DNA of 64,000 bases from Okamejei kenojei (taxonomy: Eukaryota), in the NCBI GenBank assembly GCA_035221665.1, contig CM069148.1, positions 50,220,001 through 50,284,000 of the forward strand, read 5' to 3'. Positions 12,144 through 57,089 of the stretch are shown here, in pieces. Each line of letters starts with the position of its first letter. Position 1 is the first letter of the stretch. Below the pieces are notes generated by a model. The model was given only the letters and a program-made list of their open reading frames with translations, made no database searches and was not told the origin of the DNA. The translations under genes and the position numbers were made by a program.

Positions 12144-12358
12144 CTGTATTAAAACACAGCAAGGTGACAAAAACTGAACATGAATGCGTGGAATTCCAAA
12201 CATAAAATTCCACATTTGTGAGTATTGACCTGAATATTGTATATAATATTTGCAGGGATTAACTAAATATAAATCATGTACAGTCTGCAGACAATGGCTG
12301 GACTTCAAATGTCACAGAAAGGCCAACAATACTCTGGATGCTTTGAGAAATGCCTTAC

Positions 12359-12448
12359 CTTCACTTGCTCCTGCATTTTGGGTATCCTGCCTCTCTGTCT
12401 CCTGTTCACCTTCATCACAACTCCCTGTGGCAGCGTCTGACTTGGGCT
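12359..12448 (-). CDS. 30-aa repeat exon type C, unit 2 (90 nt)
   Basis: Phase 1-1; (E)PKSDAATGSCDEGEQETERQDTQNAGASE. Confidence 0.65.
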
Positions 12449-13813: not shown

Positions 13814-13904
13814 CTTCCTGTTTTACTGCACGTGGATTTTCCAGTTTCCTTGCTTGATTTTTATGCTCATTCGGGACTTCCTGTGGTGACACCTGAATCC
13901 GGCG
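13814..13904 (-). CDS. 30-aa repeat exon type A, unit 3 (91 nt, +1 indel)
   Basis: Splice sites intact; one duplicated base. Confidence 0.5.
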
Positions 13905-14258
13905 CTGTATTAAAATACAAGAAGGTCTCACATGTAATGATGCCAACGCTGCCTGAGATAAGGTATCCCAACACTTTCGGGAAGCTGGATCACAGGACTC
14001 GAACTTTTGTAGTTTCCCACCAATATTTTAAGAGCACAAAAGAGAAGCCTTAACCTGACTAAAGATCTAACATGTTGCTGCTGCAAAAAGTTACGTACAA
14101 TTGTTATTTAGTTAAATACATCACTATTGACATCAAATTTCATCTGATCCGTACCTGCTGTAAGCCAAATGTTTAATGGACTTCAGAATGAACGAAACAA
14201 TTCGGCAAGTGCACTTAGAGTCATAGACTCATAGAGCGATACAGCGTGGAAACAGGCC

Positions 14259-16078
14259 AGATGTCCTGCTCGACCAGCTTCATGAGACCATTCATGACCT
14301 TCTCTTTCAGGGCTACTAGTACCGGCTTTGCAGAACACTGTGATGGGGTCACATCCTCTGTCCTAGTTACCAACTTGACCTTGCCAGGCAGCCTCCCACG
14401 TCTTTTCGTCATCAAAGACATCTTTGTATCTCTTGAGTAATGAGCCAGCCTCACTAACAGCATTCAGGCTCTTTGAAGTTCTCATAGTGAACGTGATGAG
14501 TTTTCACCTGTGGTGTAGCTTTGCCGCTCAGGAGCGGTGTGAGCCAGCCTTCCTCTACCACTATGTAGTGAACACGGGTACTTCTTGTTCGTCTCGTTCC
14601 GGAGTATGACTTTGGTCCTACCTTGCGCCAGCAGGTTGGATCTGTTGTACATCTTTAAGATGATTTTCTCTCATCTAATGTCCTCTTTGTTGGGTACAAG
14701 ATCCTTGGGTATCACATTTAACACTGGCACCAGAGTCAATTTGAAATTTGATGGGTGCTGTGCCGACCTGCATCTCAGCGAATAGGCCTGAAGAGGAATT
14801 GCTTCCAGCTGCATTGATCTCAATGCAACTCACAGACTCTGTCGGAAGTGGGCGTGTCAGATGTCTCTACGACCTTGTGCAGACACCGTTTCTGCGAGCT
14901 CTCCTTCCTCTACTTGCAGCAGCAGGCGAAGTGGTTTTGACGTCCGCATCTGTTGCAGACCTTCCCATATGCTGGGCATTCCTCCTTCCTATGCTTGTGC
15001 ATCCTTGCACAAAACTTACACTTGACTAGTCCCTGATTCTTCCTCTGCAAAGGAAAATCAATCACCTTTCCCCTCGGTTTGAATCGTTCCACCTTGTGTA
15101 TTGTCGGCTCTTCGCCGATGACCTGCATTCTTGCTGCTGTTACCTCCGAGGATCTACATATGTCCACAGTTCCCTGCAGTGGTCAGATTCCTCTTCTGAA
15201 GGAGTGTCTTCCTAGTTGACTGGTCCTCAATACCAATGACGATGCGATCTCAAATGAGCCTTTCTCTCAGGCAATCACAGAAGTTGCATGTTTTAGCAAG
15301 CTCCTTCAGCTCTGCAACTCATGATTTATTGCTTTCCCCTGATTTCTGGTCTCGTTTATTGATAATGAATCTTTCATACGTTTCATTCGTCTCTCCTATG
15401 ATGATGGTTGACATCTTGTCGATGATGACTTTCACATCCGTCTCATCTGTTACCGTTTTGAATGTCAGGGTATTGATGATTCACACACCTTCTGGCCCAA
15501 CAGAATGCAGGAATACTGCTTTTTGATACTGTTTCTCTTTCTTATCCACTTCTATTATCACTTCATAATTGTCATGCATTCGTTTAAACATTTTCCACTC
15601 TTCCACCCTGTTCTCTTTGAGCTTTTTGGAGCCACGTGGAAAGATGGACTGGTCTGCGCCATTTTGAACTATCAGCATATTCCCTCTCTCTTAATAGCTT
15701 ATTTTATCTTTAAGCAGTCTCCCACAGCACGTCATTTTACACTTCGACTCCCACAGCACTGATTTACACGCAGCGTCTTATCTTTGTGTGTTCACTGACC
15801 AGCATCCACTCATGCATGCAGCTAGTCCGGTCACTGAGTGTTGAAACACTGAAACACAAATCTTCACTTTCACTGCTGCCACCATATTTTGATATTTGTC
15901 TGCTTACAAAATAAGTAAACTAGCATATAATATACAGAGAAAGATGGTTGCACACACACTCATGTTGGGATCAAAAGCAGGTATGATTTATTTCCAAGTC
16001 AAGGGTCACTGACTGACTTACTGAGCATTTGCGATAATGAGTACAGCTCATACGCATAATTAAATGGATATTGTCACA
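14259..16078 (-). mobile_element. Ty3/Gypsy fragment, unit 3
   Basis: Copy of 3367-5178. Confidence 0.85.
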
Positions 16079-17490
16079 ATATCCCTCCAACCTGTCCATG
16101 TACCTGTCGAACAGTTTCTTAAATTTTGTGATAGTCCCCATCTTCACTACCTCCTCTGGCAGCTTGTTCCATACAGCCACTACCCTCTGTGTAAAAATGT
16201 TATCTCTCAGATCTTTTCCCTTTCACCTTAAACCTATGTCCTCTGGTTCTCGATTCACCTAATCTGGGCAAGAGACTCTGTGCATCTACCCGATTTATTC
16301 CTCTCATGATCCTATACACCTCTGTAAGATCACTCCTGCACTTCAAGGAATAGGAGTACTCAACCTCTCCCTGTAGCTCACACCCTCTAGTCCTGGCAAC
16401 ATCCTCTAAATCTTCTCTGCACCCTTTCCAGCTTGTCAACATATTTCCTGTAACATGGTGCTAGAACTGAGCACAGTATACCAAATGCGGTCGCACCAAT
16501 GTCTTATACAACTGCATCATGACCTCGCAACTTATACACTCAATACCCTGGCTGATGAAGGCCAATGTGCCAAAAGTATTTTTGACCACCCAACCTACCT
16601 GCGACCACTTTGAATGAACTAAGCACCTGCACTCCTAGATCCTTCTGCTCCACAACACTCCCCAGGGCCCTACCATTCACTGTGTAGGTCCTGCCCACAT
16701 TAGACTTCCCAAAAAGCAACACCTCACATTTCTCTGCATTAAATTCCATCAATCAATCTTTAGCCCATCGGGACAATCGATCAAGATTCTGCTGCAATTT
16801 TTCACAACCTACTTCACCATCTGCAAAACCACCCACTTTTGTATCATCTGCAAAGTTGTGAATCTTGCCAAGTTTTCATCCAAATCACTTTTGTGAGTCT
16901 GTGGAATTCACTGCCTCAGGGCGATGGAGGCCATGGATACTTTCACGAGAGAGCTAGATAGGCCTCTTAAAGTTAGCAGAGTCAGAGATATGTGGAGAAG
17001 CAGGAACGGGGCACTGATTGTGGATGATCAGCCATGATCACATTGAATGGCTTGAAGGGCCGAATGGCCTCCTCCTGCACCTAGTGTCTATTGTCTACCA
17101 GGCAGAAATACAATCAAGTCAAACTCAAGTACAATAGATGGAACAAAGGGGAAGATACTGAATGCAGAATATCGTTCTATACTGACAGGAAGAAAATAAG
17201 ATTTAAAAGATCTGTCCTTGCCGGGAGAACAAAGGAATGCAAAGGGCACAATGAGCAACAACTGAATTTGAATATGTGGTTTTCCACATAGAAAATCTGA
17301 CATATATGTGAATTTTCCTGATAGGCATATAAAATTGAAATTACGAATATGCTGGGAATGGAGGGATATGGGTTATGTGCAGAAAGCTAATTGATGGTCT
17401 TGGCGTTACATTCAGCCCAGACATTGTGGGCTGAAGGGCCTGTTCCTGTGCTGTACTGTTCCATGTGCGATATTTCAGCAAAAGCATTAC

Positions 17491-17581
17491 CTTCCTGTTT
17501 TCCTGCACTTTGATTTTCCAGATTCTCTTTTTCCATTTTACCTTCATCAAGACTTCTTATGGTGACATCTGAATCCGGGCG
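17491..17581 (-). CDS. 30-aa repeat exon type B, unit 3 (91 nt, +1 indel)
   Basis: Splice sites intact; extra base in a homopolymer. Confidence 0.5.
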
Positions 17582-17797
17582 CTGTATTAAAAACACAGCA
17601 AGGTGACAAAAACTGAACATGAATGCGTGGAATTCCAAACATAAAATTCCACATTTGTGAGTATTGACCTGAATATTGTATATAATATTTGCAGGGATTA
17701 ACTAAATATAAATCATGTACAGTCTGCAGACAATGGCTGGACTTCAAATGTCACAGAAAGGCCAACAATACTCTGGATGCTTTGAGAAATGCCTTAC

Positions 17798-17887
17798 CTT
17801 CACTTGCTCCTGCATTTTGGGTATCCTGCCTCTCTGTCTCCTGTTCACCTTCATCACAACTCCCTGTGGCAGCGTCTGACTTGGGCT
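17798..17887 (-). CDS. 30-aa repeat exon type C, unit 3 (90 nt)
   Basis: Phase 1-1, open frame. Confidence 0.65.
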
Positions 17888-19248
17888 CTGCATTTAAACA
17901 AAAGAAAGTCTCTCAGATGTGATAATGGCAACACTGCCTGAGACAAGGTATGTGAGAAGCTGGATCACACCTCGAGGAACACTATTATTCTTCCCCACAG
18001 TGAAGCCTTCATCTGCCGAAGGATCTGTATCTCACTCCTGCAGAAAATACCTTCAACTCCTCTTCACTTTGAACCACATTTGTCTTTTGACTTTAGAGAC
18101 ACAGCCCTTTGGCCCACCGAGTCCGCGCCGACCAGTGATCACCCTGTACACTAACGCTATCCTACACATTAATGACTATTTACAATTTTACCAAATGCAA
18201 ATTAGGAGTGGCACGATGGAGCAGTGGACAAGTTGTTGCCTTACAGCGCCAGTGAGCCTGGATCGATTCTGACTATAAATGCTTTCTGTATGGAGTTTGT
18301 ACGTTCTCCCCGTGACCGCGTGGGTTTTCTCCAGCTGCTCTGGTTTGCTCCCGTACTCCAAAGACGTACAGGTTGGAGGTTAATTGGCTTTGGTACAAAT
18401 TGTCCCTGATGTGTAGGATAGTGCTATGTGTGGGGATCACTGGTCGGCACGGACTGGGGTAGCCTAGAATACAAGAGATATTGTGGTTGTAGCAGGAGAA
18501 AAGGAGTGGACCAGGAAGAAGCGCTGGGATCACATGACTCCCTGGAGGAGCATCGGGATGTAGGAATTACTTCAGAAGGAAATTGGAACGACTAAGAGAA
18601 AGCATGAGATCGCTTTGGCTGAGAAGATTAAGGAGAATGCAACAAGTTTTCATAGGTATATGAAGGGGAATAGAGAATTGGATTAGTAAAGGATGCAGAA
18701 TTAGCCTGAAGTTCATAAGTTGTGGGAGCAGAATTAGGCCATTCAGCCTATCAGATGCAGAGAGTGAAAGATGCAAGGAACTGTAGATGCTGGTTTACAA
18801 AAATATGGACACAAAGTGGTGGAGTAAGTGATTCAAGTAGCAGTTGTGGAAAACACGGATAGGTAATCTTTTGGGTTGGGACCTTTTTTGAACTAGAGAC
18901 CCTGTCTAGTGGTGTGCCTCCCATTGCTGTTTGTTATCAAGGTATAGGGTCTGTTTCCACACTGTATCTATGACTGTGACTATGACTATGTGCTGTGCGG
19001 GTTTTATACACAGAGGGTGGTGGGTGACTGGGACTCGCTGCCAGGGGTGGTGGTGGAGGCAGATACGATAATGACGTTTAAGAGACTTCTGCATAGACAC
19101 ACGGATATGCTGGGAATATAGGGATATGGGTAATGTGCAGGAAGATAAGTGATGGTCTTGGCATCATGTTCAGCACAGATATTGTGGGCTGAAGGGCCTG
19201 TTCCTGTGCTGTACTGCTCTATGTTCTATGTTTCCGCAAAAGCATTAC

Positions 19249-19338
19249 CTTCCTGTTTTACTGCACGTGGATTTTCCAGTTTCCTTGCTTGATTTTTATG
19301 CTCATCGGGACTTCCTGTGGTGACACCTGAATCCGGCG
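19249..19338 (-). CDS. 30-aa repeat exon type A, unit 4 (90 nt)
   Basis: (A)PDSGVTTGSPDEHKNQARKLENPRAVKQE, flanked by cag| and |gtaatg. Confidence 0.7.
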
Positions 19339-19690
19339 CTGTATTAAAATACAAGAAGGTCTCACATGTAATGATGCCAACGCTGCCTGAGATAAGGTAT
19401 CCCAACACTTTCGGGAAGCTGGATCACAGGACTCGAACTTTTGTAGTTTCCCACCAATATTTTAAGAGCACAAAAGAGAAGCCTTAACCTGACTAAAGAT
19501 CTACATGTTGCTGCTGCAAAAGTTACGTACAATTGTTATTTAGTTAAATACATCACTATTGACATCAAATTTCATCTGATCCGTACCTGCTGTAAGCCAA
19601 ATGTTTAATGGACTTCAGAATGAACGAAACAATTCGGCAAGTGCACTTAGAGTCATAGACTCATAGAGCGATACAGCGTGGAAACAGGCC

Positions 19691-21505
19691 AGATGTCCTG
19701 CTCGACCAGCTTCATGAGACCATTCATGACCTTCTCTTTTCAGGGCTACTAGTACCGGCTTTGCAGAACACTGTGATGGGGTCACATCCTCTGTCCTAGT
19801 TACCAACTTGACCTTGCCAGGCAGCCTCCCACGTCTTTCGTCATCAAAGACATCTTTGTATCTCTTGAGTAATGAGCCAGCCTCACTAACAGCATTCAGG
19901 CTCTTGAAGTTCTCATAGTGAACGTGATGAGTTTCACCTGTGGTGTAGCTTTGCCGCTCAGGAGCGGTGTGAGCCAGCCTTCCTCTACCACTATGTAGTG
20001 AACACGGTACTTCTTGTTCGTCTCGTTCCGGAGTATGACTTTGGTCCTACCTTGCGCCAGCAGGTTGGATCTGTTGTACATCTTTAAGATGATTTTCTCT
20101 CATCTAATGTCCTCTTTGTTGGGTACAAGATCCTTGGGTATCACATTAACACTGGCACCAGAGTCAATTTGAAATTTGATGGGTGCTGTGCCGACCTGCA
20201 TCTCAGCGAATAGGCCTGAAGAGGAATTGCTTCCAGCTGCATTGATCTCAATGCAACTCACAGACTCTGTCGGAAGTGGGCGTGTCAGATGTCTCTACGA
20301 CCTTGTGCAGACACCGTTTCTGCGAGCTCTCCTTCCTCTACTTGCAGCAGCAGGCGAAGTGGTTTTGACGTCCGCATCTGTTGCAGACCTTCCCATATGC
20401 TGGGCATTCCTCCTTCCTATGCTTGTGAATCCTTGCACAGAACTTACACTTGACTAGTCCCTGATTCTTCCTCTGCAAAGGAAAATCAATCATCTTTCCC
20501 CTCGGTTTGAATCGTTCCACCTTGTGTATTGTCGGCTCTTCGCCGATGACCTGCATTCTTGCTGCTGTTACCTCCGAGGATCTACATATGTCCACAGTTC
20601 CCTGCAGTGTCAGATTCCTCTTCTGAAGGAGTGTCTTCCTAGTTGACTGGTCCTCAATACCAATGACGATGCGATCTCAAATGAGCCTTTCTCTCAGGCA
20701 ATCACAGAAGTTGCATGTTTTAGCAAGCTCCTTCAGCTCTGCAACTCATGATTTATTGCTTTCCCCTGATTTCTGGTCTCGTTTATTGATAATGAATCTT
20801 TCATACGTTTCATTCGTCTCTCCTATGATGATGGTTGACATCTTGTCGATGATGACTTTCACATCCGTCTCATCTGTTACCGTTTTGAATGTCAGGGTAT
20901 TGATGATTCACACACCTTCTGGCCCAACAGAATGCAGGAATACTGCTTTTTGATACTGTTTCTCTTTCTTATCCACTTCTATTATCACTTCATAATTGTC
21001 ATGCATTCGTTTAAACATTTTCCACTCTTCCATCCTGTTCTCTTTGAGCTTTTTGGAGCCACGTAGAAAGATGGACTGGTCTGCGCCATTTTGAACTATC
21101 AGCATATTCCCTCTCTCTTAATAGCTTATTTTATCTTTAAGCAGTCTCCCACAGCACGTCATTTTACACTTCGACTCCCACAGCACTGATTTACACGCAG
21201 CGTCTTATCTTTGTGTGTTCACTGACCAGCATCCACTCATGCATGCAGCTAGTCCGGTCACTGAGTGTTGAAACACTGAAACACAAATCTTCACTTTCAC
21301 TGCTGCCACCATATTTTGATATTTGTCTGCTTACAAAATAAGTAAACTAGCATATAATATACAGAGAAAGATGGTTGCACACACACTCATGTTGGGATCA
21401 AAAGCAGGTATGATTTATTTCCAAGTCAAGGGTCACTGACTGACTTACTGAGCATTTGCGATAATGAGTACAGCTCATACGCATAATTAAATGGATATTG
21501 TCACA
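19691..21505 (-). mobile_element. Ty3/Gypsy fragment, unit 4
   Basis: Copy of 3367-5178. Confidence 0.85.
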
Positions 21506-22918
21506 ATATCCCTCCAAACCTGTCCATGTACCTGTCGAAACAGTTTCTTAAATTTTGTGATAGTCCCCATCTTCACTACCTCCTCTGGCAGCTTGTTCCA
21601 TACAGCCACTACCCTCTGTGTAAAAATGTTATCTCTCAGATCTTTTCCCTTTCACCTTAAACCTATGTCCTCTGGTTCTCGATTCACCTAATCTGGGCAA
21701 GAGACTCTGTGCATCTACCCGATTTATTCCTCTCATGATCCTATACACCTCTGTAAGATCACTCCTGCACTTCAAGGAATAGGAGTACTCAACCTCTCCC
21801 TGTAGCTCACACCCTCTAGTCCTGGCAACATCCTCTAAATCTTCTCTGCACCCTTTCCAGCTTGTCAACATATTTCCTGTAACATGGTGCTAGAACTGAG
21901 CACAGTATACCAAATGCGGTCGCACCAATGTCTTATACAACTGCATCATGACCTCGCAACTTATACACTCAATACCCTGGCTGATGAAGGCCAATGTGCC
22001 AAAAGTATTTTTGACCACCCAACCTACCTGCGACCACTTTGAATGAACTAAGCACCTGCACTCCTAGATCCTTCTGCTCCACAACACTCCCCAGGGCCCT
22101 ACCATTCACTGTGTAGGTCCTGCCACATTAGACTTCCCAAAAAGCAACACCTCACATTTCTCTGCATTAAATTCCATCAATCAATCTCTAGCCCATCGGG
22201 ACAATCGATCAAGATTCTGCTGCAATTTTTCACAACCTACACCACCATCTGCAAAACCACCCACTTTTGTATCATCTGCAAAGTTGTGAATCTTGCCAAG
22301 TTTTCATCCAAATCACTTTTGTGAGTCTGTGGAATTCACTGCCTCAGGGCGATGGAGGCCATGGATACTTTCACGAGAGAGCTAGATAGGCCTCTTAAAG
22401 TTAGCAGAGTCAGAGATATGTGGAGAAGCAGGAACGGGGCACTGATTGTGGATGATCAGCCATGATCACATTGAATGGCTTGAAGGGCCGAATGGCCTCC
22501 TCCTGCACCTAGTGTCTATTGTCTACCAGGCAGAAATACAATCAAGTCAAACTCAAGTACAATAGATGGAACAAAGGGGAAGATACTGAATGCAGAATAT
22601 CGTTCTATACTGACAGGAAGAAAATAAGATTTAAAAGATCTGTACTTGCCGGGAGAACAAAGGAATGCAAAGGGCACAATGAGCAACAACTGAATTTGAA
22701 TATGTGGTTTTCCACATAGAAAATCTGACATATATGTGAATTTTCCTGATAGGCATATAAAATTGAAATTACGAATATGCTGGGAATGGAGGGATATGGG
22801 TTATGTGCAGAAAGCTAATTGATGGTCTTGGCGTTACATTCAGCCCAGACATTGTGGGCTGAAGGGCCTGTTCCTGTGCTGTACTGTTCCATGTGCGATA
22901 TTTCAGCAAAAGCATTAC

Positions 22919-23008
22919 CTTCCTGTTTTCCTGCACTTTGATTTTCCAGATTCTCTTTTTCCATTTTACCTTCATCAAGACTTCTTATGGTGACATCTGA
23001 ATCCGGCG
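22919..23008 (-). CDS. 30-aa repeat exon type B, unit 4 (90 nt)
   Basis: (A)PDSDVTIRSLDEGKMEKENLENQSAGKQE, flanked by cag| and |gtaatg. Confidence 0.7.
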
Positions 23009-23223
23009 CTGTATTAAAACACAGCAAGGTGACAAAAACTGAACATGAATGCGTGGAATTCCAAACATAAAATTCCACATTTGTGAGTATTGACCTGAAT
23101 ATTGTATATAATATTTGCAGGGATTAACTAAATATAAATCATGTACAGTCTGCAGACAATGGCTGGACTTCAAATGTCACAGAAAGGCCAACAATACTCT
23201 GGATGCTTTGAGAAATGCCTTAC

Positions 23224-23313
23224 CTTCACTTGCTCCTGCATTTTGGGTATCCTGCCTCTCTGTCTCCTGTTCACCTTCATCACAACTCCCTGTGGCAGCG
23301 TCTGACTTGGGCT
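23224..23313 (-). CDS. 30-aa repeat exon type C, unit 4 (90 nt)
   Basis: (E)PKSDAATGSCDEGEQETERQDTQNAGASE, flanked by cag| and |gtaagg. Confidence 0.7.
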
Positions 23314-24675
23314 CTGCATTTAAACAAAAGAAAGTCTCTCAGATGTGATAATGGCAACACTGCCTGAGACAAGGTATGTGAGAAGCTGGATCACACCTCG
23401 AGGAACACTATTATTCTTCCCCACAGTGAAGCCTTCATCTGCCGAAGGATCTGTATCTCACTCCTGCAGAAAATACCTTCAACTCCTCTTCACTTTGAAC
23501 CACATTTGTCTTTTGACTTTAGAGACACAGCCCTTTGGCCCACCGAGTCCGCGCCGACCAGTGATCACCCTGTACACTAACGCTATCCTACACATTAATG
23601 ACTATTTACAATTTTACCAAATGCAAATTAGGAGTGGCACGATGGAGCAGTGGACAAGTTGTTGCCTTACAGCGCCAGTGAGCCTGGATCGATTCTGACT
23701 ATAAATGCTTTCTGTATGGAGTTTGTACGTTCTCTCCCGTGACCGCGTGGGTTTTCTCCAGCTGCTCTGGTTTGCTCCCGTACTCCAAAGACGTACAGGT
23801 TGGAGGTTAATTGGCTTTGGTACAAATTGTCCCTGATGTGTAGGATAGTGCTATGTGTGGGGATCACTGGTCGGCACGGACTGGGGTAGCCTAGAATACA
23901 AGAGATATTGTGGTTGTAGCAGGAGAAAAGGAGTGGACCAGGAAGAAGCGCTGGGATCACATGACTCCCTGGAGGAGCATCGGGATGTAGGAATTACTTC
24001 AGAAGGAAATTGGAACGACTAAGAGAAAGCATGAGATCGCTTTGGCTGAGAAGATTAAGGAGAATGCAACAAGTTTTCATAGGTATATGAAGGGGAATAG
24101 AGAATTGGATTAGTAAAGGATGCAGAATTAGCCTGAAGTTCATAAGTTGTGGGAGCAGAATTAGGCCATTCAGCCTATCAGATGCAGAGAGTGAAAGATA
24201 CAAGGAACTGTAGATGCTGGTTTACAAAAATATGGACACAAAGTGGTGGAGTAAGTGATTCAAGTAGCAGTTGTGGAAAACACGGATAGGTAATCTTTTG
24301 GGGTGGGACCTTTTTTGAACTAGAGACCCTGTCTAGTGGTGTGCCTCCCATTGCTGTTTGTTATCAAGGTATAGGGTCTGTTTCCACACTGTATCTATGA
24401 CTGTGACTATGACTATGTGCTGTGCGGGTTTTATACACAGAGGGTGGTGGGTGACTGGGACTCGCTGCCAGGGGTGGTGGTGGAGGCAGATACGATAATG
24501 ACGTTTAAGAGACTTCTGCATAGACACACGGATATGCTGGGAATATAGGGATATGGGTAATGTGCAGGAAGATAAGTGATGGTCTTGGCATCATGTTCAG
24601 CACAGATATTGTGGGCTGAAGGGCCTGTTCCTGTGCTGTACTGCTCTATGTTCTATGTTTCCGCAAAAGCATTAC

Positions 24676-24765
24676 CTTCCTGTTTTACTGCACGTGGATT
24701 TTCCAGTTTCCTTGCTTGATTTTTATGCTCATCGGGACTTCCTGTGGTGACATCTGAATCCGGCG
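24676..24765 (-). CDS. 30-aa repeat exon type A, unit 5 (90 nt)
   Basis: (A)PDSDVTTGSPDEHKNQARKLENPRAVKQE, flanked by cag| and |gtaatg. Confidence 0.7.
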
Positions 24766-25117
24766 CTGTATTAAAATACAAGAAGGTCTCACATGTAATG
24801 ATGCCAACGCTGCCTGAGATAAGGTATCCCAACACTTTCGGGAAGCTGGATCACAGGACTCGAACTTTTGTAGTTTCCCACCAATATTTTAAGAGCACAA
24901 AAGAGAAGCCTTAACCTGACTAAAGATCTACATGTTGCTGCTGCAAAAGTTACGTACAATTGTTATTTAGTTAAATACATCACTATTGACATCAAATTTC
25001 ATCTGATCCGTACCTGCTGTAAGCCAAATGTTTAATGGACTTCAGAATGAACGAAACAATTCGGCAAGTGCACTTAGAGTCATAGACTCATAGAGCGATA
25101 CAGCGTGGAAACAGGCC

Positions 25118-26933
25118 AGATGTCCTGCTCGACCAGCTTCATGAGACCATTCATGACCTTCTCTTTCAGGGCTACTGGTACCGGCTTTGCAGAACACTGT
25201 GATGGGGTCACATCCTCTGTCCTAGTTACCAACTTGACCTTGCCAGGCAGCCTCCCACGTCTTTCGTCATCAAAGACATCTTTGTATCTCTTGATTAATG
25301 AGCCAGCCTCACTAACAGCATTCAGGCTCTTGAAGTTCTCATAGTGAACGTGATGAGTTTCACCTGTGGTGTAGCTTTGCCGCTCAGGAGCGGTGTGAGC
25401 CAGCCGTCCTCTACCACTATGTAGTGAACACGGTACTTCTTGTTGTTCGTCTCGTTCCGGAGTATGACTTTGGTCCCCTTGCGCCAGCAGGTTGGATCTG
25501 TTGTACATCTTTAAGATGATTTTGTCTCATCTAATGTCCTCTTTGTTGGGTACAAGATCCTTGGGAATCACATTAACACTGGCACCAGAGTCAATTTGAA
25601 ATTTGATGGGTGCTGTGCCAACCTGCATCTCAGCGAATAGGCCTGAAGAGGAATTGCTTCCAGCTGCATTGATCTCAATGTAACTCACAGACTCTGTCGG
25701 AAGTGGGCGTGTCAGATGTCTCTACGACCTTGTGCAGACACCGTTTCTGCGAGCTCTCCTTCCTCTACTTGCAGTAGCAGGCGAAGTGGTTTTGACGTCC
25801 GCATCTGTTGCAGACCTTCCCATATACTGGGCATTCCTCCTTCCTACGCTTGTGCATCCTTGCACAGAACCTACACTTGACTAGTCCCTGATTCTTCCTC
25901 TGCAAAGGAAAATCAATCATCTTTCCCCTCGGTTTTAATCGTTCCACCTTGTGTATTGTCGGTTCTTCGCCGATGACCTGCATTCTTGCCGCTGTTACCT
26001 CCGAGGATCTACATATGTCCACAGTCCCCTGCAGTGTCAGATTCCTCTTCTGAAGGAGTGTCTTCCTAGTTGACTGGTCCTGAATACCAATGACGATGCG
26101 ATCTCAAATGAGCCTTTCTCTCAGGCAATCACAGAAGTTGCATGTTTTAGCAAGCTCCTTCAGCTCTGCAACTCATGATTTATTGCTTTCCCCTGATTTC
26201 TGGTCTCGTTTATTGAAAATGAATCTTTCATACGTTTCATTCGTCTCTCCTATGATGATGGTTGACATCTTGTCGATGATGACTTTCACATCCGTCTCAT
26301 CTGTTACCGTTTTGAATGTCAGGGTATTGATGATTCACACACCTTCTGGCCCAACAGAATGCAGGAATACTGCTTTTTGATACTGTTTCTCTTTCTTATC
26401 CACTTCTATTATCACTTCATAATTGTCATGCATTCGTTTAAACATTTTCCACTCTTCCACCCTGTTCTCTTTGAGCTTTTTGCAGCCACGTGGAAAGATG
26501 GACTGGTCTGCGCCATTTTGAACTATCAGCATATTCCTTTTCTCTTAATAGCTTATTTCATCTTTAAGCAGTCTCCCACAGCACGTCATTTTACACTTCG
26601 ACTCCCACAGCACTGATTTACACGCAGCGTCTTATCTTTGTGTGTTCACTGACCAGCATCCACTCATGCATGCAGCTAGTCCGGTCACTGAGTGTTGAAA
26701 CACTGAAACACAAATCTTCACTTTCACTGCTGCCACCATATTTTGATATTTGTCTGCTTACAAAATAAGTAAACTAGCATATAATATACAGAGAAAGATG
26801 GCTGCACACACACTCATGTTGGGATCAAAAGCAGGTATGATTTATTTCCAAGTCAAGGGTCACTGACTGACTTACTGAGCATTTGCGATAATGAGTACAG
26901 CTCATACGCATAAATTAAATGGATATTGTCACA
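25118..26933 (-). mobile_element. Ty3/Gypsy fragment, unit 5
   Basis: Copy of 3367-5178. Confidence 0.85.
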
Positions 26934-28362
26934 ATATCCCTCCAAACCTGTCCATGTACCTGTCGAACAGTTTCTTAAATTTTGTGATAGTCCCCATCTT
27001 CACTACCTCCTCTGGCAGCTTGTTCCATACAGCCACTACCCTCTGTGTAAAAATGTTATCTCTCAGATCTTTTCCCTTTCACCTTAAACCTATGTCCTCT
27101 GGTTCTCGATACACCTAATCTGGGCAAGAGACTCTGTGCATCTACCCGATTTATTCCTCTCATGATCCTATACACCTCTGTAAGATCACCCATCATCCTC
27201 CTGCACTTCAAGGAATAGGAGTACTCAACCTCTCCCTGTAGCTCACACCCTCTAGTCCTGGCAACATCCTCTAAATCTTCTCTGCACCCTTTCCAGCTTG
27301 TCAACATATTTCCTGTAACATGGTGCTAGAACTGAGCACAGTACACCAAATGTGGTCGCACCAATGTCTTATACAACTGCATCATGACATCGCAACTTAT
27401 ACACTCAATACCCTGGCTGATGAAGGCCAATGTGCCAAAAGTATTTTGACCACCCAACCTACCTGCGACCACTTTGAATGAACTAAGCACCTGCACTCCT
27501 AGATCCTTCTGCTCCACAACACTCCCCAGAGCCCTACCATTCACTGTGTAGGTCCTGCCACATTAGACTTCCCAAAAAGCAACACCTCACATTTCTCTGC
27601 ATTAAATTCCATCAATCAATCTTTAGCCCATCGGAACAATCGATCAAGATTCTGCTGCAATTTTTCACAACCTACTTCACCATCTGCAAAACCACCCACA
27701 TTTGTATCATCTGCAAAGTTGTGAATCTTGCCATCTAAGTTTTCATCCAAATCACTTTTGTGAGTCTGTGGAATTCACTGCCTCAGGGCGATGGAGGCCA
27801 TGGATACTTTCAAGAGAGAGCTAGATAGGCCTCTTAAAGTTAGCAGTCAGAGATATGTGGAGAAGCAGGAACGGGGCACTGATTGTGGATGATCAGCCAT
27901 GATCACATTGAATGGCTTGAAGGGCCGAATGGCCTCCTCTTGCACCTAGTGTCTATTGTCTACCAGGCAGAAATACAATCAAGTCAAACTCAAGTACAAT
28001 AGATGGAACAAAGGGGAAGATACCGAATGCAGAATATCGTTCTATACTGACAGGAAGAAAATAAGATTTAAAAGATCTGTACTTGCCGGGAGAACAAAGG
28101 AATGTAAAGGGCAAAGGGCACAATGAGCAACAACTGAATTTGAATATGTGGTTTTCCACATAGAAAATCTGACATATATGTGAATTTTCCTGATAGGCAT
28201 ATAAAATTGAAATTACGAATATGCTGGGAATGGAGGGATATGGGTTATGTGCAGAAAACTAATTGATGGTCTTGGCGTTACATTCAGCCCAGACATTGTG
28301 GGCTGAATGGCCTGTTCCTGTGCTGTACTGTTCCATGTGCGATATTTCAGCAAAAGCATTAC

Positions 28363-28452
28363 CTTCCTGTTTTCCTGCACTTTGATTTTCCAGATTCTCT
28401 TTTTCCATTTTACCTTCATCAAGACTTCTTATGGTGACATCTGAATCCGGCG
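28363..28452 (-). CDS. 30-aa repeat exon type B, unit 5 (90 nt)
   Basis: (A)PDSDVTIRSLDEGKMEKENLENQSAGKQE, flanked by cag| and |gtaatg. Confidence 0.7.
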
Positions 28453-28668
28453 CTGTATTAAAACACAGCAAGATGACAAAAACTGAACATGAATGCGTGG
28501 AATTCCAAACATAAAATTCCACATATGTGAGTATTGACCTGAATATTGTATATAATATATTTCAGGGATTAACTAAATATAAATCATGTACAGTCTGCAG
28601 ACAATGGCTGGACTTCAAATGTCACAGAAAGGCCAACAATACTCTGGATGCTTTGAGAAATGCCTTAC

Positions 28669-28758
28669 CTTCACTTGCTTCTGCATTTTGGGTATCCTGC
28701 CTCTCTGTCTCCTGTTCACCTTCATCACAACTCCCTGTGGCAGCGTCTGACTTGGGCA
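28669..28758 (-). CDS. 30-aa repeat exon type C, unit 5 (90 nt)
   Basis: (V)PKSDAATGSCDEGEQETERQDTQNAEASE, flanked by cag| and |gtaagg. Confidence 0.7.
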
Positions 28759-29851
28759 CTGCATTTAAACAAAAGAAAGTCTCTCAGATGTGATAATGGC
28801 AACACTGCCTGAGACAAGGTATGTGAGAAGCTGGATCACACCTCGAGGAACACTATTATTCTTCCCCACAGTGAAGCCTTCATCTGCCGAAGGATCTGTA
28901 TCTCACTCCTGCAGAAAATACCTTCAACTCCTCTTCACTTTGAACCACATTTGTCTTTTGACTTTAGAGACACAGCCCTTTGGCCCACCGAGTCCGCGCC
29001 GACCAGTGATCACCCTGTACACTAACGCTATCCTACACATTAATGACTATTTACAATTTTACCAAATGCAAATTAGGAGTGGCACGATGGAGCAGTGGAC
29101 AAGTTGTTGCCTTACAGCGCCAGTGAGCCTGGATCGATTCTGACTATAGATGCTGTCTGTATGGAGTTTGTACGTTCACCCCGTGACCGCGTGGGTTTTC
29201 TCCAGCTGCTCTGGTTTGCTCCCGTACTCCAAAGACGTACAGGTTGGAGGTTAATTGGCTTTGGTACAAATTGTCCCTGATGTGTAGGATAGTGCTATGT
29301 ATGGGGATCACTGGTCGGCACGGACTGGGGTAGCCTAGAATACAAGAGATATTGTGGTTGTAGCAGGAGAAAAGGAGTGGACCAGGAAGAAGCACTGGGA
29401 TCACATGACTCCCTGGAGGAGCATCGGGATGTAGGAATTACTTCAGAAGGAAATTGGAACGACTAAGAGAAAGCATGAGATCGCTTTGGCTGAGAAGATT
29501 AAGGAGAATGCAACAAGTTTTTATAGGTATATGAAGGAGAATAGAGAATTGGATTAGTAAAGGATGCAGAATTAGCCTGAAGTTCATAAGTTGTGGGAGC
29601 AGAATTAGGCCATTCAGCCTATCTGATGCAGAGAGTGAAAGATACAAGGAACTGTAGATGCTGGTTTACAAAAATATGGACACAAAGTGGTGGAGTAAGG
29701 GATTCAAGTAGCATTTGTGGAAAACACGGATAGGTAATCTTTTGGGTTGGGACCTTTTTTGGACTAGAGACCCTGTCTAGTGGTGTGCCTCCCATTGCTG
29801 TTTGTTATCAATGATTTAGATGAGAATGTACAAGGCATTATTAGATATTAC

Positions 29852-30251
29852 CTGAGGTAACTTTGAGTACTGTAGTATGCATTTCAGACCAAGTGGCGTC
29901 TGGAGTGTTTGATTTGTGTTCAATATCGATCTGAGCAGCATCGTCCGTGGATAAATTAGGCTGCACCTTAATACAGCAGTGAATGTATGAATAACCTGTA
30001 TCTGCAGTTTGTAATTCAGGCTGATCTGCGGAGAAGGATTTATCTGGATTGCATGAATTCAGTATAGTTAGAGGTTGTGTCACCCTTTTTGGTCCCTGCA
30101 ATTGTTCTGCTGACAATTGCCAGTGAAATAATGTAATTGTTTTCCGCTCTCTCCTCTTCAGTGATATAACATTATCCATTGGCACCAGAGTAGTCATGGT
30201 CACATCCCAGCTCACATCAGCAGTTTCACCATGTACGACTTCATACTGATT
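29852..30251 (-). pseudogene. Ig-like (C1-like) exon, 3' part, separated from its 5' part by the DIRS insertion
   Basis: Open frame NQYEVVHGETADVSWDVTM...LKRRERKTITLFHW...HCCIKVQPNLSTDDAAQIDIEHKS...VLKVTS, ending at a phase-1 donor TCAG|gtaata. Confidence 0.65.
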
Positions 30252-30447
30252 TTACTTCGGAGTAACGTGAGTGACTACGTGAATAGAAGCCCGTACATCC
30301 GTTGGTGCGTCATGACGTCAGACGTTGGTGCAGTCGGCCGGTTGGAGCAGCAGCGCTCCTCCAAGCGGTAAGTTTAAACGGAGGTAAGGTTTTTTAAAAT
30401 TTTTTACCACAGGTCATTTTCTGTGACGGTTTGGAGTTCTTGGAGAT

Positions 30448-31681
30448 ATGTTGCAGAAAGTGAAGAAGGTGTCGGCGAGGCGCTCCGGGGGTAGAAAGGA
30501 AAGTGGCCAGGAGAGTGTTGAGGATGAAGGCCCGTCTGGTACACCTGGTCCGGTGCTGGCTACACAGCCAGTGGTTGCGGACCCACTGCCGGGGGGCAGT
30601 GGAGGCTTGCCAGTAGGGCGGAAGGCCACTGGCAAGTCTCTGTGGCCCGTAGATGAGTCGGGCCTGGAGGTTATACCCTCCATAGGAGAGTCCGTTTGCT
30701 CACGGCTCTCCCACGTCGAGATTTTATTACAAAAGAATGCTCGACAGGGACCAGCTCCGTGAGGAGGAGTGGTGCCCAAGCCAGGCTGATGGAGAGCTTG
30801 TGCTAGCAGCACCTGTTTCAGGGCTGCAGAACTATCCTGCCTGTGAGGAGGATGTTCTATCACTGCAGTTTGCTGACACTGATTCTATGCTGGGGGAGAG
30901 CAGTAAAGAAGTTCGGTTGGAGGTAATTCCGAACATTGCTGGGAAGTTTGCTCAGCCTAGAGAGGCAGGAGAGGCGATTGATGGGGAATTGGCTGAAGCC
31001 ATTCAGTATATGCTCCCCCACCAGTTACAGGAGTTAGCTATGGATGAAGCAGCAAAAAACTATAAAGCTCCTGTTAATTGTGATCTCCTGAAGGTACCAG
31101 TGGTTAATCACCAAATTTGGTCACAGATGGGTATGCCTGCTAGGGCTCATTAGATGAAGTTCCAAAAAGTGCTTAAACTGTTGTCAGCAGGTATTACAGC
31201 TGTGGGGAAAGTGATTGATCCAAGCAATGTGGTTGAAGCACACCAGGACGGACTGGGATTCCTTTGTAATGCGTTTTTTGAAATAAATAACATCAGGAGG
31301 GCCGCTATTAGGCCAGTGCTTAATCCGAATTTGGCAAGTTTGTGCAAACCAACCAGTGTACCACCACAAAATCTGTTGCTTGCGAAAAGGGTCAAAGAAT
31401 GTCATGAAGATGTTAAAACTATGGCCCTCATTAAGCCGGCTGGTAAGCAGGGCAAAAGGTTTTCTCCGTATTGGAAAGGAACTAATGTGGATGCAGGAGA
31501 AGGAACGAGCCGTTCAGGTCTTCAATTTCGGAACTGGCAGGCTGCCAGCATGAAGGGGAAGGTGCCTTTCTCCACAAGAGGTCGAGGACAACAAGGTCCG
31601 CAAGGAAAGATGCAGGTAAGGAATATAACATTGATAGACGATGAATTAACTGATGTTCCTGTTCAAATTGGGGAAGGTTAA
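30448..31681 (+). pseudogene. DIRS gag-like ORF (frameshift and TAG at 31151)
   Basis: PVNCDLLKVPVVNHQIW and EINNIRRAAIRPVLNP, located upstream of RT. Confidence 0.75.
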
Positions 31682-31683
31682 AA

Positions 31684-33060
31684 TTGTTTCTCAAACAATG
31701 GCAGCAGTTGACATCAGATTTGTTCATACTTAGTAGTATTGAAGGGGTGAAAAATGAATTTTACTCTAAGGACAGTCTACCTAATCAACATTTTCCTAGT
31801 CGTAAACTTATTTTTTCAGATGAGGAAAATGTGCTTGTTCAAGCAGAGATTCAGTCGTTACATAAGAAAGGGGTAATTGAGCCTTCTGTCTATCAAAGTC
31901 AACAATTTCTGTCAAGTATATTTCCCAGATCTAAAAAGACTGGGGGATGTAGAATTATTCTGGATTTATCGAGTTTGAACAAATTTGTTTGTTATAGGTA
32001 TTTCAAAATGGAGACCTTTACCACGGGCAAACATCTAGTGTCCAAAGGGTATTATATGGCAACCATTGATTTAAAGAATGTGTATTACTCAGTGTCTATT
32101 CATGGTGATGATAGAAGATATTTGAAATTTATTTGGATGACTGAGCTGTGGCAATTCAGGGCATTGCCGAATGGATTAACTTCAGCTCCTAGATTATTTA
32201 CTAAATTGGTAAAACCTGTGTTAGCATTACTTAGAGCTCAGGGGCATGTGGTAATGGCCTATTTAGATGATATTCTGATTGTTGGAAAGACTCATGCTGA
32301 AACTCAATCATCAGTTTTCAGTTATTAAAATCACTTTTGAACAAATGGGATTTGTTATTCACCCAGATAAATCTAAATTATCACCAGTCCAAATTATTGA
32401 TTATCTGGGATTTACCATTAATTCCAATCACATGTTGGTAACTTTGCCCAGGGATAAATTGAATCAGTTAATTGAGGACTGTGTTAATCTCGTTGGAGAA
32501 CAACGGCCTTCGATTAGACAAGTAGCCAGTTTAATTGGGAAGTTTGTTGCAGCATTTCCAGCTGTGCAGTATGGTCCTCTGCATTATCAACAATTACAAA
32601 GATCAAAGGAACAGGCACTGAGAATACAAAGGGGCCATTTTGATAGGCCTATGCAGTTGTCAGCTGGGGCGATTGCTGACATACAATGGCGGATAGTACA
32701 TGTTTCAAAAAGTTTAGGAATGTTTTGGTGGAACCACCGTCACTGATATTACAGACTGATGTAAGTGCACTGGGTTGGGGTGCAACAGATATGTCTTCTA
32801 GTTGTGGAGGCAGATGGAATGTGGATGAGACATCGCTTCTTCAATTAAGAAGGATTAATTATTTAGAGTTGTTGGGCACCTGGTATGGGCTCAAAGCTTA
32901 TTGTTCTACAAGCAGGGACTTGCATGTGCAGGTCCAGATTGACAACACCACAGCAGTGGCATATGTAAACCACATGGGTGGAGTTAAGTCACAGCCTTGT
33001 GATAGACTGGCTAACCAGATTTGGAGCTGGTGTATTGACTAAAATATCTGGCTTTCAGCA
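31684..33060 (+). pseudogene. DIRS reverse transcriptase / RNase H (frameshifted)
   Basis: RIILDLSSLNKF, IDLKNVYYSV, LPNGLTSAPRLFTK, YLDDIL; RNase H motifs TDVSALGWG, INYLEL, DNTTAVAYVNHMGG. Confidence 0.92.
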
Positions 33061-33543
33061 CTTTGTTTGCCAGGAAGATTCAACACTGTAGCTGACACTA
33101 GGTCACGTCAGTTTAATAACAACATTGAATGGATGTTAAATCAGGATATATTTAACCAAATGATTGTTGAGTATGGATTGCCAGATATTGACTTGTTTGC
33201 ATCTTGATTAAATCATCAGTTACCTAGATATGTTTCATGGGAACCAGATTCTGGGGCAGTAGCAGTGGATGCGTTTTCGCTGCATTGGGGAGGAATGTTT
33301 GTGTATGTATTTCCTCCATTCTGTCTCATCAGCAGATGTTTGCAAAAGATCAAGGAGGACTCCGCTTCAGGGGTATTGGTAGTGCCAGATTGGCCTACAC
33401 AAGCATGGTTTCCTGTTGTATTACAAATGGCTAGAGAGCCTTACATGATTATTCCCAAGAATAAAAATCTACTGGTAAATCCATTCACTGGGGATCAACA
33501 TCCTTTACATGATCGTATTGATCTGTTAATTTGCAGATTTTAA
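33061..33543 (+). pseudogene. DIRS N6-adenine methyltransferase-like domain
   Basis: IDLFAS*LNHQLPRYVSW...DAFSLHW...YVFPPF...VVPDWPTQAWFP. Confidence 0.85.
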
Positions 33544-34571
33544 GGAGGCCATACCTGGGGAGAGGACTGTCTCATCGGACTGTGGATGTTCTCACATTGG
33601 CCTGCAGGGATAGTACACAGCAGCAATATATCACCTATATAAGGAAGTGGGAGCAATTCTGCCTACAGCAGAATATTGTATATCACACTGCAGGGATCAC
33701 GGACGTATTGGAGTTTTGTCAACTCTTTATTTCGGCCAAAAATTAAGTTACAGTGCGATTAATTCAGCCAGAAGTGCTCTGTCTTCTTATTTACCTATGA
33801 ATGCAGAATTGCATACAGTAGGGACACATCCGTTAGTTTCACGATTCATGAAGGGAGTTTTCAATTCTAATCCTCCTAAACCCAGGTATGCCGGTATTTG
33901 GAATGTGGGTGAGGTTCTTATGGTTCTTCGCCAGTGGGCTCCGGTTACAAGCCTATCTATAGCCAAATTAACTATGAAGGTGGTCATGCTTATGGCGTTG
34001 GTTTCAGCTCAACGTGTACAAACGTTGCAAAAGCTACGGCTAGATATAATGCATGTGTCGGCAGATGCCATTATATTTTATGTCTATGATTTGCTTAAAC
34101 ATAATAGAAGGCATGACAGGATGTAAGATTGTGTTTTCAGCATACCCCGCAGATGGTCACTTGTGTGTAGTCTCACATTTATCTCGTTACATTGAGATTA
34201 CTAAACCTCTGAGAGGAACAGAGTTGGCTTTGTTTATTAGTCACAAAAAAACACACAGTAAGGTGTCGGTGCAAACGATTTCAAGGTGGCTAAAGCAGGT
34301 CCTGGCAAGTTCAGGAATTGATACTGATAAATTCAAATCTCATTCCACCAGGGTGGCATCAACTTCCGCGGCAAGGGCGATGGACTTGCCAATAGACCAT
34401 ATCCTCGCGGCCGCAGGATGGTCCAGTGAGCTAACTTTTCAGAGGTTTTATCACAAGCCGATTTCAAGGCTCGGGGTGTTTGCTGATTCTGTTTTCAGTA
34501 CTGTTATAGTTTCCCCTGAGTTAGAGGGGTTTGTTATGATTTTGGTTGTAAATAAACTGTTATTCGTTTAA
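33531..34571 (+). pseudogene. DIRS tyrosine recombinase (frameshifted)
   Basis: SAQRVQTL, HSTRVASTS and AAGWSSELTFQRFY supply the catalytic R...HxxR...W...Y residues. Confidence 0.92.
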
Positions 34572-34677
34572 CAAATGTTATTATTGATGCATGATTGATT
34601 GCTAACGACTTTGAGTCAATCCAGACAGTGTGAACGTCGGATTTGGGTCTGCGGCGTGAATTCATAGTGCTTTGAAG

Positions 34678-34790
34678 TATTCACGTAGTCACTCACGTGA
34701 CTCTGAAGTAAAATAGTAAGATTAAACGAGAACTTACCAGTTTGAAGTTTGATCTTTATTTTATGAGGAGTCGAGTTGAGGGACTACGTG
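34678..34790. repeat. DIRS internal complementary region (ICR)
   Basis: Reverse complement of the left end (30249-30285) fused to the reverse complement of the right end (34930-35008). Confidence 0.9.
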
Positions 34791-35008
34791 AATAGAAGCC
34801 CGTACAGCCGTTGGTGCGTCAATCTTCAAAGCAGCGGAATGAATTCACAGCTAACAATGACTGAAGTATAATGGTAAGATGATAAAACTAGAACTACCAG
34901 ATGAGATCTATGAGGGTGGGAGCGGAGGGCACGTAGTCCCTCAACTCGACTCCTCATAAAATAAAGATCAAACTTCAAACTGGTAAGTTCTCGTTTGATC
35001 TTACTATT

Positions 35009-35035
35009 CTTCATCTCACTAATTGCAGGAGGTGA
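35009..35035 (-). pseudogene. Ig-like exon, 5' stub (PPAISEMK)
   Basis: Follows a pyrimidine tract and joins 30251 in frame when the DIRS is removed. No suitable AG acceptor is present. Confidence 0.55.
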
Positions 35036-43912: not shown

Positions 43913-43933
43913 ATGTTTCAGTAAAAGCATTAA

Positions 43934-43997
43934 CTTCCCATTTTCCTGCACTTTGATTTTCCAGATTCATTGCATCCCTTTCACCCTCATTGGGACC
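43934..43997 (-). pseudogene. Decayed 30-aa repeat exon (fourth type)
   Basis: GPNEGERDAMNLENQSAGKWE, homologous to type B. The donor is mutated (GAAG|ttaatgctttt) and the 5' end is replaced by a CR1 3' tail. Confidence 0.65.
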
Positions 43998-44462
43998 AAT
44001 GTAGCTGGGACGTGTTGGCCGGTGTGGGCAAGGTGGGCCGAAGGGCCTGTTTCCAAGTTGTATCACTGTATGACTCTTTCATTATGAATGGCCAAGATCT
44101 ACAACCTATGACTTTATGAACATGGAGAAAACCCATACAGACAGCACCCGTGGGTTTGTGCTAATGTTTCTAAACTTAGTTTAAAACTTCATCTAATTGT
44201 GTATGTTGTGTGAAGAATAGGAATCTTGTATTCGATATAATGAATCACTATAATCAATTACCTCGTGCAGTTTGTGAGCCCGTCTTGGCGATAAGTGGTG
44301 TACGGTTTGGGTCTTCAATGTCCGTTGTATTTACCTGTCCTGAACAACATAAACAAGACAATTAGACAGAAAACAAGCTGACCAAGTGCCAGTTTAAAAA
44401 GTATAAAAATACACAGATCAATTCCAGCTTTCTGGATAATATATCTTTCTCTGGAACACCAG

Positions 44463-50675: not shown

Positions 50676-50777
50676 CTTTACATTTCTTCTTCCAGGTACA
50701 AATTGCTATGCACACAACACATAGGAATATGCAGATGCCACAGATGCCTCCAATAATCAGCCCAATTTTTCCATGTT
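50676..50777 (-). CDS. NCR3LG1-like: B7-H6-like gene, transmembrane exon (102 nt, phase 1-1)
   Basis: gtctgttttaacag|AA CAT GGA...TGT AAA G|gtaaac, encoding (E)HGKIGLIIGGICGICIFLCVVCIAICTWKKKCK: a hydrophobic helix plus a basic stop-transfer. Missed by the ORF track. Confidence 0.88.
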
Positions 50778-56990: not shown

Positions 56991-57089
56991 TCCCAGTGGT
57001 CTAAGAATCTAAATCCCTGTTCATCCTTGTTTCAAACTTCCAAACCATTTCCTTGGAATTATATTCCTGAATGTTATTGTTAATCTTAC

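Follow-up and report, generated by a model that had tools for sequence, protein, structure and literature searches.

A DIRS1-like retrotransposon splits a post-transmembrane Ig-like exon in a B7-H6-like gene of the skate Okamejei kenojei

Introduction

A stretch of 64,000 nt of the Okamejei kenojei genome (GCA_035221665.1, contig CM069148.1, 50,220,001 to 50,284,000, forward strand), hereafter the window, carries on its minus strand a gene in which an Ig-like exon lies downstream of the transmembrane (TM) exon and is split by a retrotransposon. The locus raises the question of what the split exon encodes, on which side of the membrane its product would lie, and what has become of it in the skate. 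It is unusual for a type I immune surface protein to carry Ig domains in its cytosolic part.

Results and Discussion

The host gene

Analysis of the minus strand revealed a V-set exon (57090..57422; Pfam V-set E 4.7e-8; AG/GT ends), an extracellular C1-set exon with both cysteines (53578..53892; Pfam C1-set E 3.9e-13; splice sites present), a TM exon with a basic stretch at its end (50676..50777; splice sites present) and a first cytoplasmic exon of 78 nt (44262..44339; AG/GT ends). All intact exons of the gene are in phase 1-1. The TM and first cytoplasmic exons are identical to the Rhinoraja gene model P0002 at 24/33 and 17/25 residues, respectively. An N gap (49376-49765), which counts against the reading offered below, separates the TM exon from the cytoplasmic exons. 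An acidic-repeat exon remnant (43932..43994, minus strand), recognised by a tblastn match and its sequence, has TT at the donor and has lost its 5' part. A tandem array of about five 5.4-kb units, 97-99% identical (3252..29811, minus strand), contains 90-nt phase-1 acidic exons, the first copies of which are found at 28758-28669, 28452-28363 and 24765-24676. A signal-peptide exon was not located within the 64-kb window.

Human B7-H6 (NCR3LG1), the NKp30 ligand, has a type I V-C-TM layout (PMC6514059) and a Gag-like tail with ITIM, SH2- and SH3-binding motifs (PMC2715080). The host gene has the same arrangement, with a V + C ectodomain and a single TM segment. PDB searches with the skate V exon and with the shark homologue P0006 identified B7-H6 as the closest solved relative, being the best single-stretch match of the V exon (E 3e-12) and the best match of the shark protein (E 2e-24); CD276 outscores B7-H6 on the lone V exon solely when two stretches are summed. 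The skate gene thus resembles B7-H6 in layout and V-domain match, and B7-H6-like is used here as a label for this resemblance. The difference lies in the tail, which here holds C1-derived Ig-like domains and acidic repeats in place of the Gag-like human sequence.

The split exon and its empty site

The post-TM exon follows the TM exon (50777-50676) in the gene and consists of two pieces on the minus strand. The 5' piece of 26 nt, including an ATT core (35006..35031), aligns with the start of the domain in P0002, and the 3' piece of 400 nt (29852..30251) is open across 133 codons and ends at a phase-1 GT donor. Rejoined, 26 nt and 400 nt less the shared 3-nt core give 423 nt, a length divisible by 3, stop-free and with a phase-1 GT end. 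The initial annotation had described an uninterrupted exon of about 140 amino acids; the open frame and the donor stand, with the length corrected to 141 codons and the start to 35031, so that the first of its two leading prolines belongs to intron letters. Its statement that excision restores the frame holds for the reconstruction on paper, while no sign of the element leaving was found. The acceptor AG reported as missing is indeed replaced, the position (35032..35034, minus strand) reading CAC instead of CAG; a pyrimidine tract precedes it, and AG is absent from the 55 nt upstream.

The inserted element (30249..35008, plus strand, 4,760 nt) is antisense to the gene, bears ATT at both ends and has frames broken by stops and frame changes. 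Its left terminus (30249..30285) is complementary to the left part of an internal complementary region (inverted pair I3, 37 nt, 95%) and its right terminus (34930..35008) to the right part (inverted pair I1, 86 nt, 95%). This internal region (34678..34790; pairs I1 and I3) contains a 3-nt circular junction, its reverse complement reading right end, ATT and left end. As to inverted terminal repeats, no long left-right pair is among the inverted pairs listed; the ends of the element pair with this region, and 45 nt of the left end occur again at 34777-34821. The coding part, all on the plus strand, comprises a reading frame at the gag position that is interrupted by one stop (30686..31681; named by position only, no Pfam match), a pol region in several frames (31654..33543) with reverse transcriptase (Pfam RVT_1 E 1.7e-12; YLDD) and, by motif only, RNase H and methyltransferase, and a tyrosine recombinase in two frames (33614..34571; Pfam Phage_integrase E 1.1e-5, narrowly short of the curated cut-off; HSTR). 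All four activities are co-oriented within less than 6 kb, and the ATT termini show no target duplication beyond the core. As defined in PMC3266345, DIRS1-like retrotransposons have NTT ends, usually ATT, and an internal complementary region overlapping on a 3-nt junction. The skate element shares with those described there the ATT ends, the split internal region, the absence of a target duplication beyond the core, the order of reverse transcriptase, RNase H and methyltransferase before the recombinase, and the size below 6 kb; the anatomy of the insertion agrees with the DIRS1 model. It differs in nothing unusual, the skate copy having stops and frame changes.

A DIRS-free allele, whose existence had been anticipated, occurs as an uninterrupted coding exon in the Rhinoraja model P0002, with 106/133 residues identical to the skate 3' piece. 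In two related organisms, contigs X1 no. 7 and X5 nos. 29 and 32 end exactly at 30251 and 35006, with overhangs of 16 and 11 letters. The sum 16+3+11 = 30 equals the overlap that neighbouring contigs built from 31-mers would share over an empty site, and we infer such a site in both organisms, from the contig ends and not from the letters of the joint.

Fold and descent of the domain

An AlphaFold model of the skate 3' piece, which lacks the first strand, is an Ig sandwich (pLDDT 78.7, pTM 0.72), and a structure search with it places Ig domains at the top (Z 11.8, rmsd 2.2, 107 aligned). The whole domain was modelled from the chimaera protein P0017; this model matches the C domain of B7-H6 with Z 10.7, rmsd 2.1 and 99 aligned, level with the highest-ranking entries. 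Models and searches together support an Ig beta-sandwich, in line with the initial annotation, as the predicted fold. Because V-type domains predominate among the matches of the skate model, fold by itself is silent on C1. Profile comparison by hhalign gave 97.0% against the extracellular C1 domain (104 columns), 97.6% against post-TM C1 domains and 2.8% against V; a V-set origin was rejected on the last value, and the suggested C1-like character found support. The C1 pattern in strands B, C, E and F is present by hhalign and alignment. Pfam PF07654 (Ig C1-set) still scores on some chimaera copies, and no Pfam family was found for the skate 3' piece at E 1. The domain also weakly matches beta-2-microglobulin by sequence (E 0.012).

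The canonical disulfide pair occurs in none of 42 domain copies, as against 23/23 extracellular C1 domains; the domain is therefore better called C1-derived than canonical C1. The B-strand cysteine, which the initial annotation had read as replaced by Trp, is Trp in 38/42 copies, and the F-strand cysteine is gone in 42/42. By profile the domain thus matches the extracellular C1 domain of its own family; it differs from the C1-set in the missing B-F disulfide, the post-TM placement, a C strand that in most copies has no Trp where the alignment would place it, and an insertion of 30-35 residues with a new conserved Trp and a predicted extra strand, which leaves it without the short C-to-D connection of C1 domains. 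Homodimer prediction scored 0.00, no answer either way.

A post-TM domain family in cartilaginous fishes

Related domains turned up in the gene models of 13 species of cartilaginous fish, with 1-8 copies each. Cartilaginous-fish proteins make up 15 of 19 phmmer matches, and a further search added 10 more; the other four phmmer matches (P0018-P0020 and P0022; a NACHT protein and MBG-repeat proteins) were set aside as fortuitous. Neither the 19 phmmer matches nor the 11 of the further search include the domain from a bony vertebrate. The suggestion that some non-mammalian B7-H6-like proteins carry a similar post-TM domain is supported for sharks, rays and a chimaera, and not confirmed for amphibians or reptiles (0/19, 0/11). 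A near-length homologue search gave no match among two candidates. ESM Atlas returned Ig-type clusters at 0.88-0.89, a lead only, and for a long Narcine paralogue chordate V+C1 clusters at 0.92, which come without TM placement or species and are no proof of amphibian copies. Literature searches on B7-H6 or intracellular Ig domains in fish and amphibians brought up no description of the domain in titles or abstract openings, and one supplement file of PMC3964593 gave no match.

The homologues are all predicted proteins from automatic gene models, which limits the reading given below. XP_078271721.1, XP_067902348.1, XP_072322181.1, XP_042197504.1, XP_042197506.1 and XP_069754451.1 combine, as in the skate, a V-C1-TM front with the post-TM domain; unlike the skate copy, these models are intact, with 1-8 copies, and most are named 'uncharacterized'. 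Long ray paralogues have several additional ordinary C1 domains behind the post-TM domain.

The post-TM order of the initial annotation is supported, the domain lying behind the TM segment in 27/27 proteins that have one among 37 scanned. From this order we infer that the domain of intact copies lies in the cytosol, and the loss of the disulfide is as expected there. An extracellular domain, through secreted isoforms that skip the TM segment or a neighbouring gene's ectodomain fused in by the gene models, appears improbable. It would accord with the Heterodontus isoform P0025, which combines a signal peptide with all seven copies, lacks a TM segment and would be secreted, with the nine of 37 proteins, fragmentary or incompletely modelled, in which a TM segment is absent, and with the 25/56 less-derived post-TM C1 domains of long paralogues that retain both cysteines. 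Sequons for N-glycosylation are likewise not depleted in the domain (46 seen against 27 expected from shuffles), a count that is no argument for a cytosolic site, although the copies share ancestry. Against it, no scanned protein has a second hydrophobic segment after the domain, the domain starts about 10 residues past the TM segment in chimaera and long ray paralogues, the cysteine pair is lost in every one of the 42 copies, and the order is identical in sharks, rays and chimaera.

Fate of the skate exon

Taken with these results, the skate exon probably encodes a C1-derived, predicted Ig domain of cytosolic location in a B7-H6-like V-C1-TM gene. Split by the DIRS1-like element and lacking a splice acceptor, it is likely an ordinary pseudo-exon skipped in frame; splice sites and phases are compatible with the dead exon and frame-preserving skipping put forward earlier. 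The element may have entered by recombination at the ATT core, and the gene likely still yields V-C1-TM with an acidic low-complexity tail, the domain omitted. Two presumed-RNA runs gave trace cover only of the exon with no splice joint listed, which has no bearing on expression.

The exon may, however, have been dead or relaxed in the skate lineage before the element arrived, the insertion being a passenger and not the cause; we give this a substantial chance, somewhat short of even. The branch of the skate sequence measures 0.21 against 0.017 for Rhinoraja, and with shark outgroups changes private to the skate exceed those private to Rhinoraja by 11:2, 10:1 and 11:3, whereas the TM and first cytoplasmic exons have 0-3 skate-only against 7 Rhinoraja-only changes. 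The X1 contig with the putative empty site differs by 2 letters, with no gaps, over 30052-30251, which would place most of the skate changes before the insertion, and Leucoraja gene models start inside the post-TM exon. Ray outgroups nevertheless give a weak or absent excess (10:3, 7:5, 7:8), the frame is open across its 133 codons, and rapid change in an immune gene may reflect adaptation. Rather less likely, the gene copy as a whole would be a pseudogene, or its transcript truncated by the insertion, in place of clean exon skipping. A 4.8-kb antisense element within the transcription unit, the dead donor of the upstream remnant exon and 1-nt gaps in several downstream repeat-exon copies relative to the first copies would fit such decay, but open frames and canonical AG/GT ends are found in the V, C1, TM, first cytoplasmic and first three acidic exons, and the gaps, which fall within near-identical tandem units, may be errors of assembly.

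Origin and significance of the family

The split exon by itself represents ordinary gene decay; the post-TM Ig-domain family of cartilaginous fishes, unnamed and likely cytosolic, is of greater significance. A phase-1 C1 exon may have been duplicated to a position behind the TM exon before the chimaera-elasmobranch split; the duplicate would then have exchanged its cysteines for Trp and Ile/Val, gained the loop of 30-35 residues and multiplied to 1-8 copies. Intact copies could serve as a folded cytosolic docking module, giving a signal or an adaptor link upon engagement of the B7-like ectodomain. We tentatively suggest, as a proposal that may well fail, that cartilaginous-fish B7-family receptors form an undescribed class, signalling through arrays of as many as eight Ig domains that are cytosolic, free of disulfides, descended from the receptors' own C1 exon and retained since the chimaera-shark split, with tails switched by gain and loss of symmetric exons and the skate copy as a loss in progress. 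Should the topology prove correct, the oldest jawed vertebrates have B7-H6-like ligands with a folded signalling module where the human protein has a Gag-like tail, reverse signalling by B7 ligands becomes testable, and the domain offers a natural case of a stable C1 domain free of disulfide.

Post-TM Ig-like domains in cartilaginous fish

The exon split by the DIRS1-like element (minus strand, 35031-29852) belongs to a family of post-TM Ig-like domains found in cartilaginous fish. The intact domain of Rhinoraja had 19 phmmer matches, of which 15 came from 11 cartilaginous species (Heterodontus, two Scyliorhinus, Stegostoma, Heptranchias, two Mobula, Hemitrygon, Narcine, Rhinoraja and Callorhinchus); the other four were discarded as chance matches. 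A search with a Narcine paralogue gave 11 matches, from rays or skates only, and added the genera Hypanus and Pristis. The initial annotation had expected homologues in B7-H6-like proteins of non-mammalian vertebrates, and these were found in sharks, rays and a chimaera; no bony-vertebrate copy occurred among the 19 and 11 matches. Its observation and reading hold for cartilaginous fish.

Among 37 proteins scanned (nine being fragments or partial models), a TM-like segment was found in 27, and every domain copy lies behind it in all 27. The Heterodontus isoform model P0025 has a signal peptide and all seven copies without a TM segment and therefore would be secreted. The number of copies ranges from one to eight. 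In long ray paralogues a single domain of this kind precedes several C1 domains of a more ordinary type, and the long ray and skate paralogues P0021 and P0032-P0041 have several C1 domains of near-canonical type behind their TM segment. There are hints that long and short forms perhaps belong to one gene cluster in Rhinoraja, Mobula hypostoma and Hemitrygon. A tree built from 42 copies (87 minus identical copies, isoforms and fragments) places the window domain with Rhinoraja (100/99) within a ray-skate clade (100/98).

Descent, fold and cysteines

AlphaFold modelling of the 132-residue 3' piece with nine sequences predicted an Ig fold (pLDDT 78.7, pTM 0.72) with strands nearly throughout, as the initial annotation had anticipated. 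Foldseek matches of this model were mostly Ig domains, with a ZP-C domain in the top row at an rmsd of 10, and VIA-align returned Ig domains throughout, mainly V-type (best Z 11.8). For the predicted model of the whole chimaera domain (P0017), both C-type and V-type domains are among the matches; its comparison with the B7-H6 C domain gave Z 10.7 and rmsd 2.1 over 99 aligned residues with 20% identity. Descent is settled by sequence, not by fold: profile comparison gives 97.0% for the extracellular C1 domains of the family versus 2.8% for V, which indicates a C1-derived domain and rules out V-set descent. Profile alignment also revealed an insertion of 30-35 residues after strand C.

Tryptophan replaces the B-strand cysteine in 38 of the 42 copies, the substitution noted earlier in the window exon, and isoleucine, valine or leucine replaces the F-strand cysteine in all 42; as the copies are related, these counts are not independent events. 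Both cysteines are kept in 23/23 extracellular C1 domains and in 25/56 of the less-derived post-TM C1 domains of the long paralogues. A type I topology, with a signal peptide, a single TM segment and basic residues behind it, would place the domain in the cytosol. Sequons are not depleted (46 seen versus 27 expected), thus giving this location no help. The intact domain might conceivably act as a docking or scaffold module, signalling back into the B7-H6-bearing cell. According to passages of PMC2715080, human B7-H6 differs in carrying a Gag-like tail with signalling motifs at this place.

What would be new here is the likely cytosolic, disulfide-free, C1-derived domain family. B7 evolution was reportedly treated by Flajnik and colleagues in 2012, and the Flajnik group is said to have described expanded B7H6 clusters in Xenopus, where cytoplasmic Ig domains may have been noted; the novelty of the domain is therefore uncertain. 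No description of the domain was found in titles and abstract openings; the literature consulted also comprised passages of PMC12227049, PMC13262535, PMC6514059, PMC2715080, PMC11599192 and PMC3266345, and one supplement file of PMC3964593 gave 0 matches.

DIRS1-like insertion and fate of the split exon

The element (plus strand, 30249-35008) has ATT at each end, and its RT, RNase H, methyltransferase and recombinase motifs are interrupted by stops and frame changes. Its region 34678-34790 is complementary, in this order, to right end, ATT junction and left end, the same layout as that of DIRS1 in passages of PMC3266345, where annotated elements mostly start and finish with NTT, most commonly ATT, and insert by recombination at this core. 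With the core counted once, the 5' piece (35031-35006, 26 nt) and the 3' piece (30251-29852, 400 nt) give an exon of 423 nt whose frame is open and which ends at a phase-1 GT donor, in agreement with the initial annotation. A DIRS-free coding version also exists, since the Rhinoraja gene model P0002 codes straight through the junction.

Contigs of 4 of 24 sequencing runs were compared with the window. One contig match in the relative organism A stops at 30251 with 16 letters beyond, and of two in organism B one stops at 30251 with 16 extra letters and the other at 35006 with 11; 16+3+11 makes 30, the overlap expected for adjacent 31-mer contigs spanning an empty site. From these contig ends we infer the empty site in both relatives, the joint itself not being among the matches listed. 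Identity between these contigs and the window is 96-99% over the exon, and the insertion is therefore recent on that scale or confined to this copy. Very many contigs of both relatives match along the entire element, so the DIRS family appears abundant in them; depth gives no copy number.

The acceptor position reads CAC behind a pyrimidine tract, the closest upstream AG being 56 nt away, so the suspected acceptor loss is borne out. Three AGs lie within the 5' piece; two of them, the first and the third, are out of phase with the phase-1 donor, and all three run into the element. Owing to the two lesions, insertion and lost acceptor, inclusion is unlikely; skipping preserves the frame, as proposed, the neighbours being phase 1-1. 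Changes in the window domain versus Rhinoraja were 11:2, 10:1 and 11:3 with shark outgroups (p 0.02, 0.01 and 0.06) and 10:3, 7:5 and 7:8 with ray outgroups, which points to faster evolution of the window domain with the former, the excess being weak or absent with the latter; in the TM exon and the first cytoplasmic exon the trend is reversed. The 3' piece is, in its first half, nearly letter-identical to the organism A contig, hence most of these changes would be older than the insertion and the exon may already have been relaxed when the element landed. The split exon in itself is ordinary.

Host gene organization

The nearest named proteins are those of the skates Rhinoraja longicauda and Leucoraja erinacea. 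On the minus strand the order is V (57422-57090), C1 (53892-53578), TM (50777-50676), a 78-nt cytoplasmic exon (44339-44262), the post-TM Ig-like exon and 90-nt acidic exons; phase 1-1 and AG/GT ends are common to all intact exons, and N gaps separate V from C1 and the TM exon from the cytoplasmic exons. B7-H6 is the top single-stretch PDB match of the V exon and the top PDB match of the ectodomain of the Scyliorhinus homologue P0006. Identity to P0006 versus P0002 is 65/110 versus 48/110 for V and 52/104 versus 30/104 for C1; P0002 is closest for TM (24/33), the first cytoplasmic exon (17/25) and the domain (106/133 residues shared with the 3' piece). By these identities the gene (57422-50676) looks like a mosaic, its ectodomain near P0006 and the remainder near P0002; as the C1-TM interval has no N gap, paralogues may have exchanged ectodomains here.

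Three kinds of acidic exons are multiplied in about five 5.4-kb tandem units, 97-99% identical (minus strand, 3252-29811). Each unit also bears a broken retroelement-like fragment, and 1-nt gaps in some exon copies are either real or assembly errors. An acidic-repeat exon remnant (minus strand, 43932-43994) has TT as donor and repeat-like sequence in place of its 5' part. The intron after the TM exon contains a 920-nt direct duplication (45844-46762 and 47009-47928, 96.7% identity), and nested reverse transcriptase fragments of LINE type, in either orientation, are densely packed in 35500-42000 and 55400-64000.
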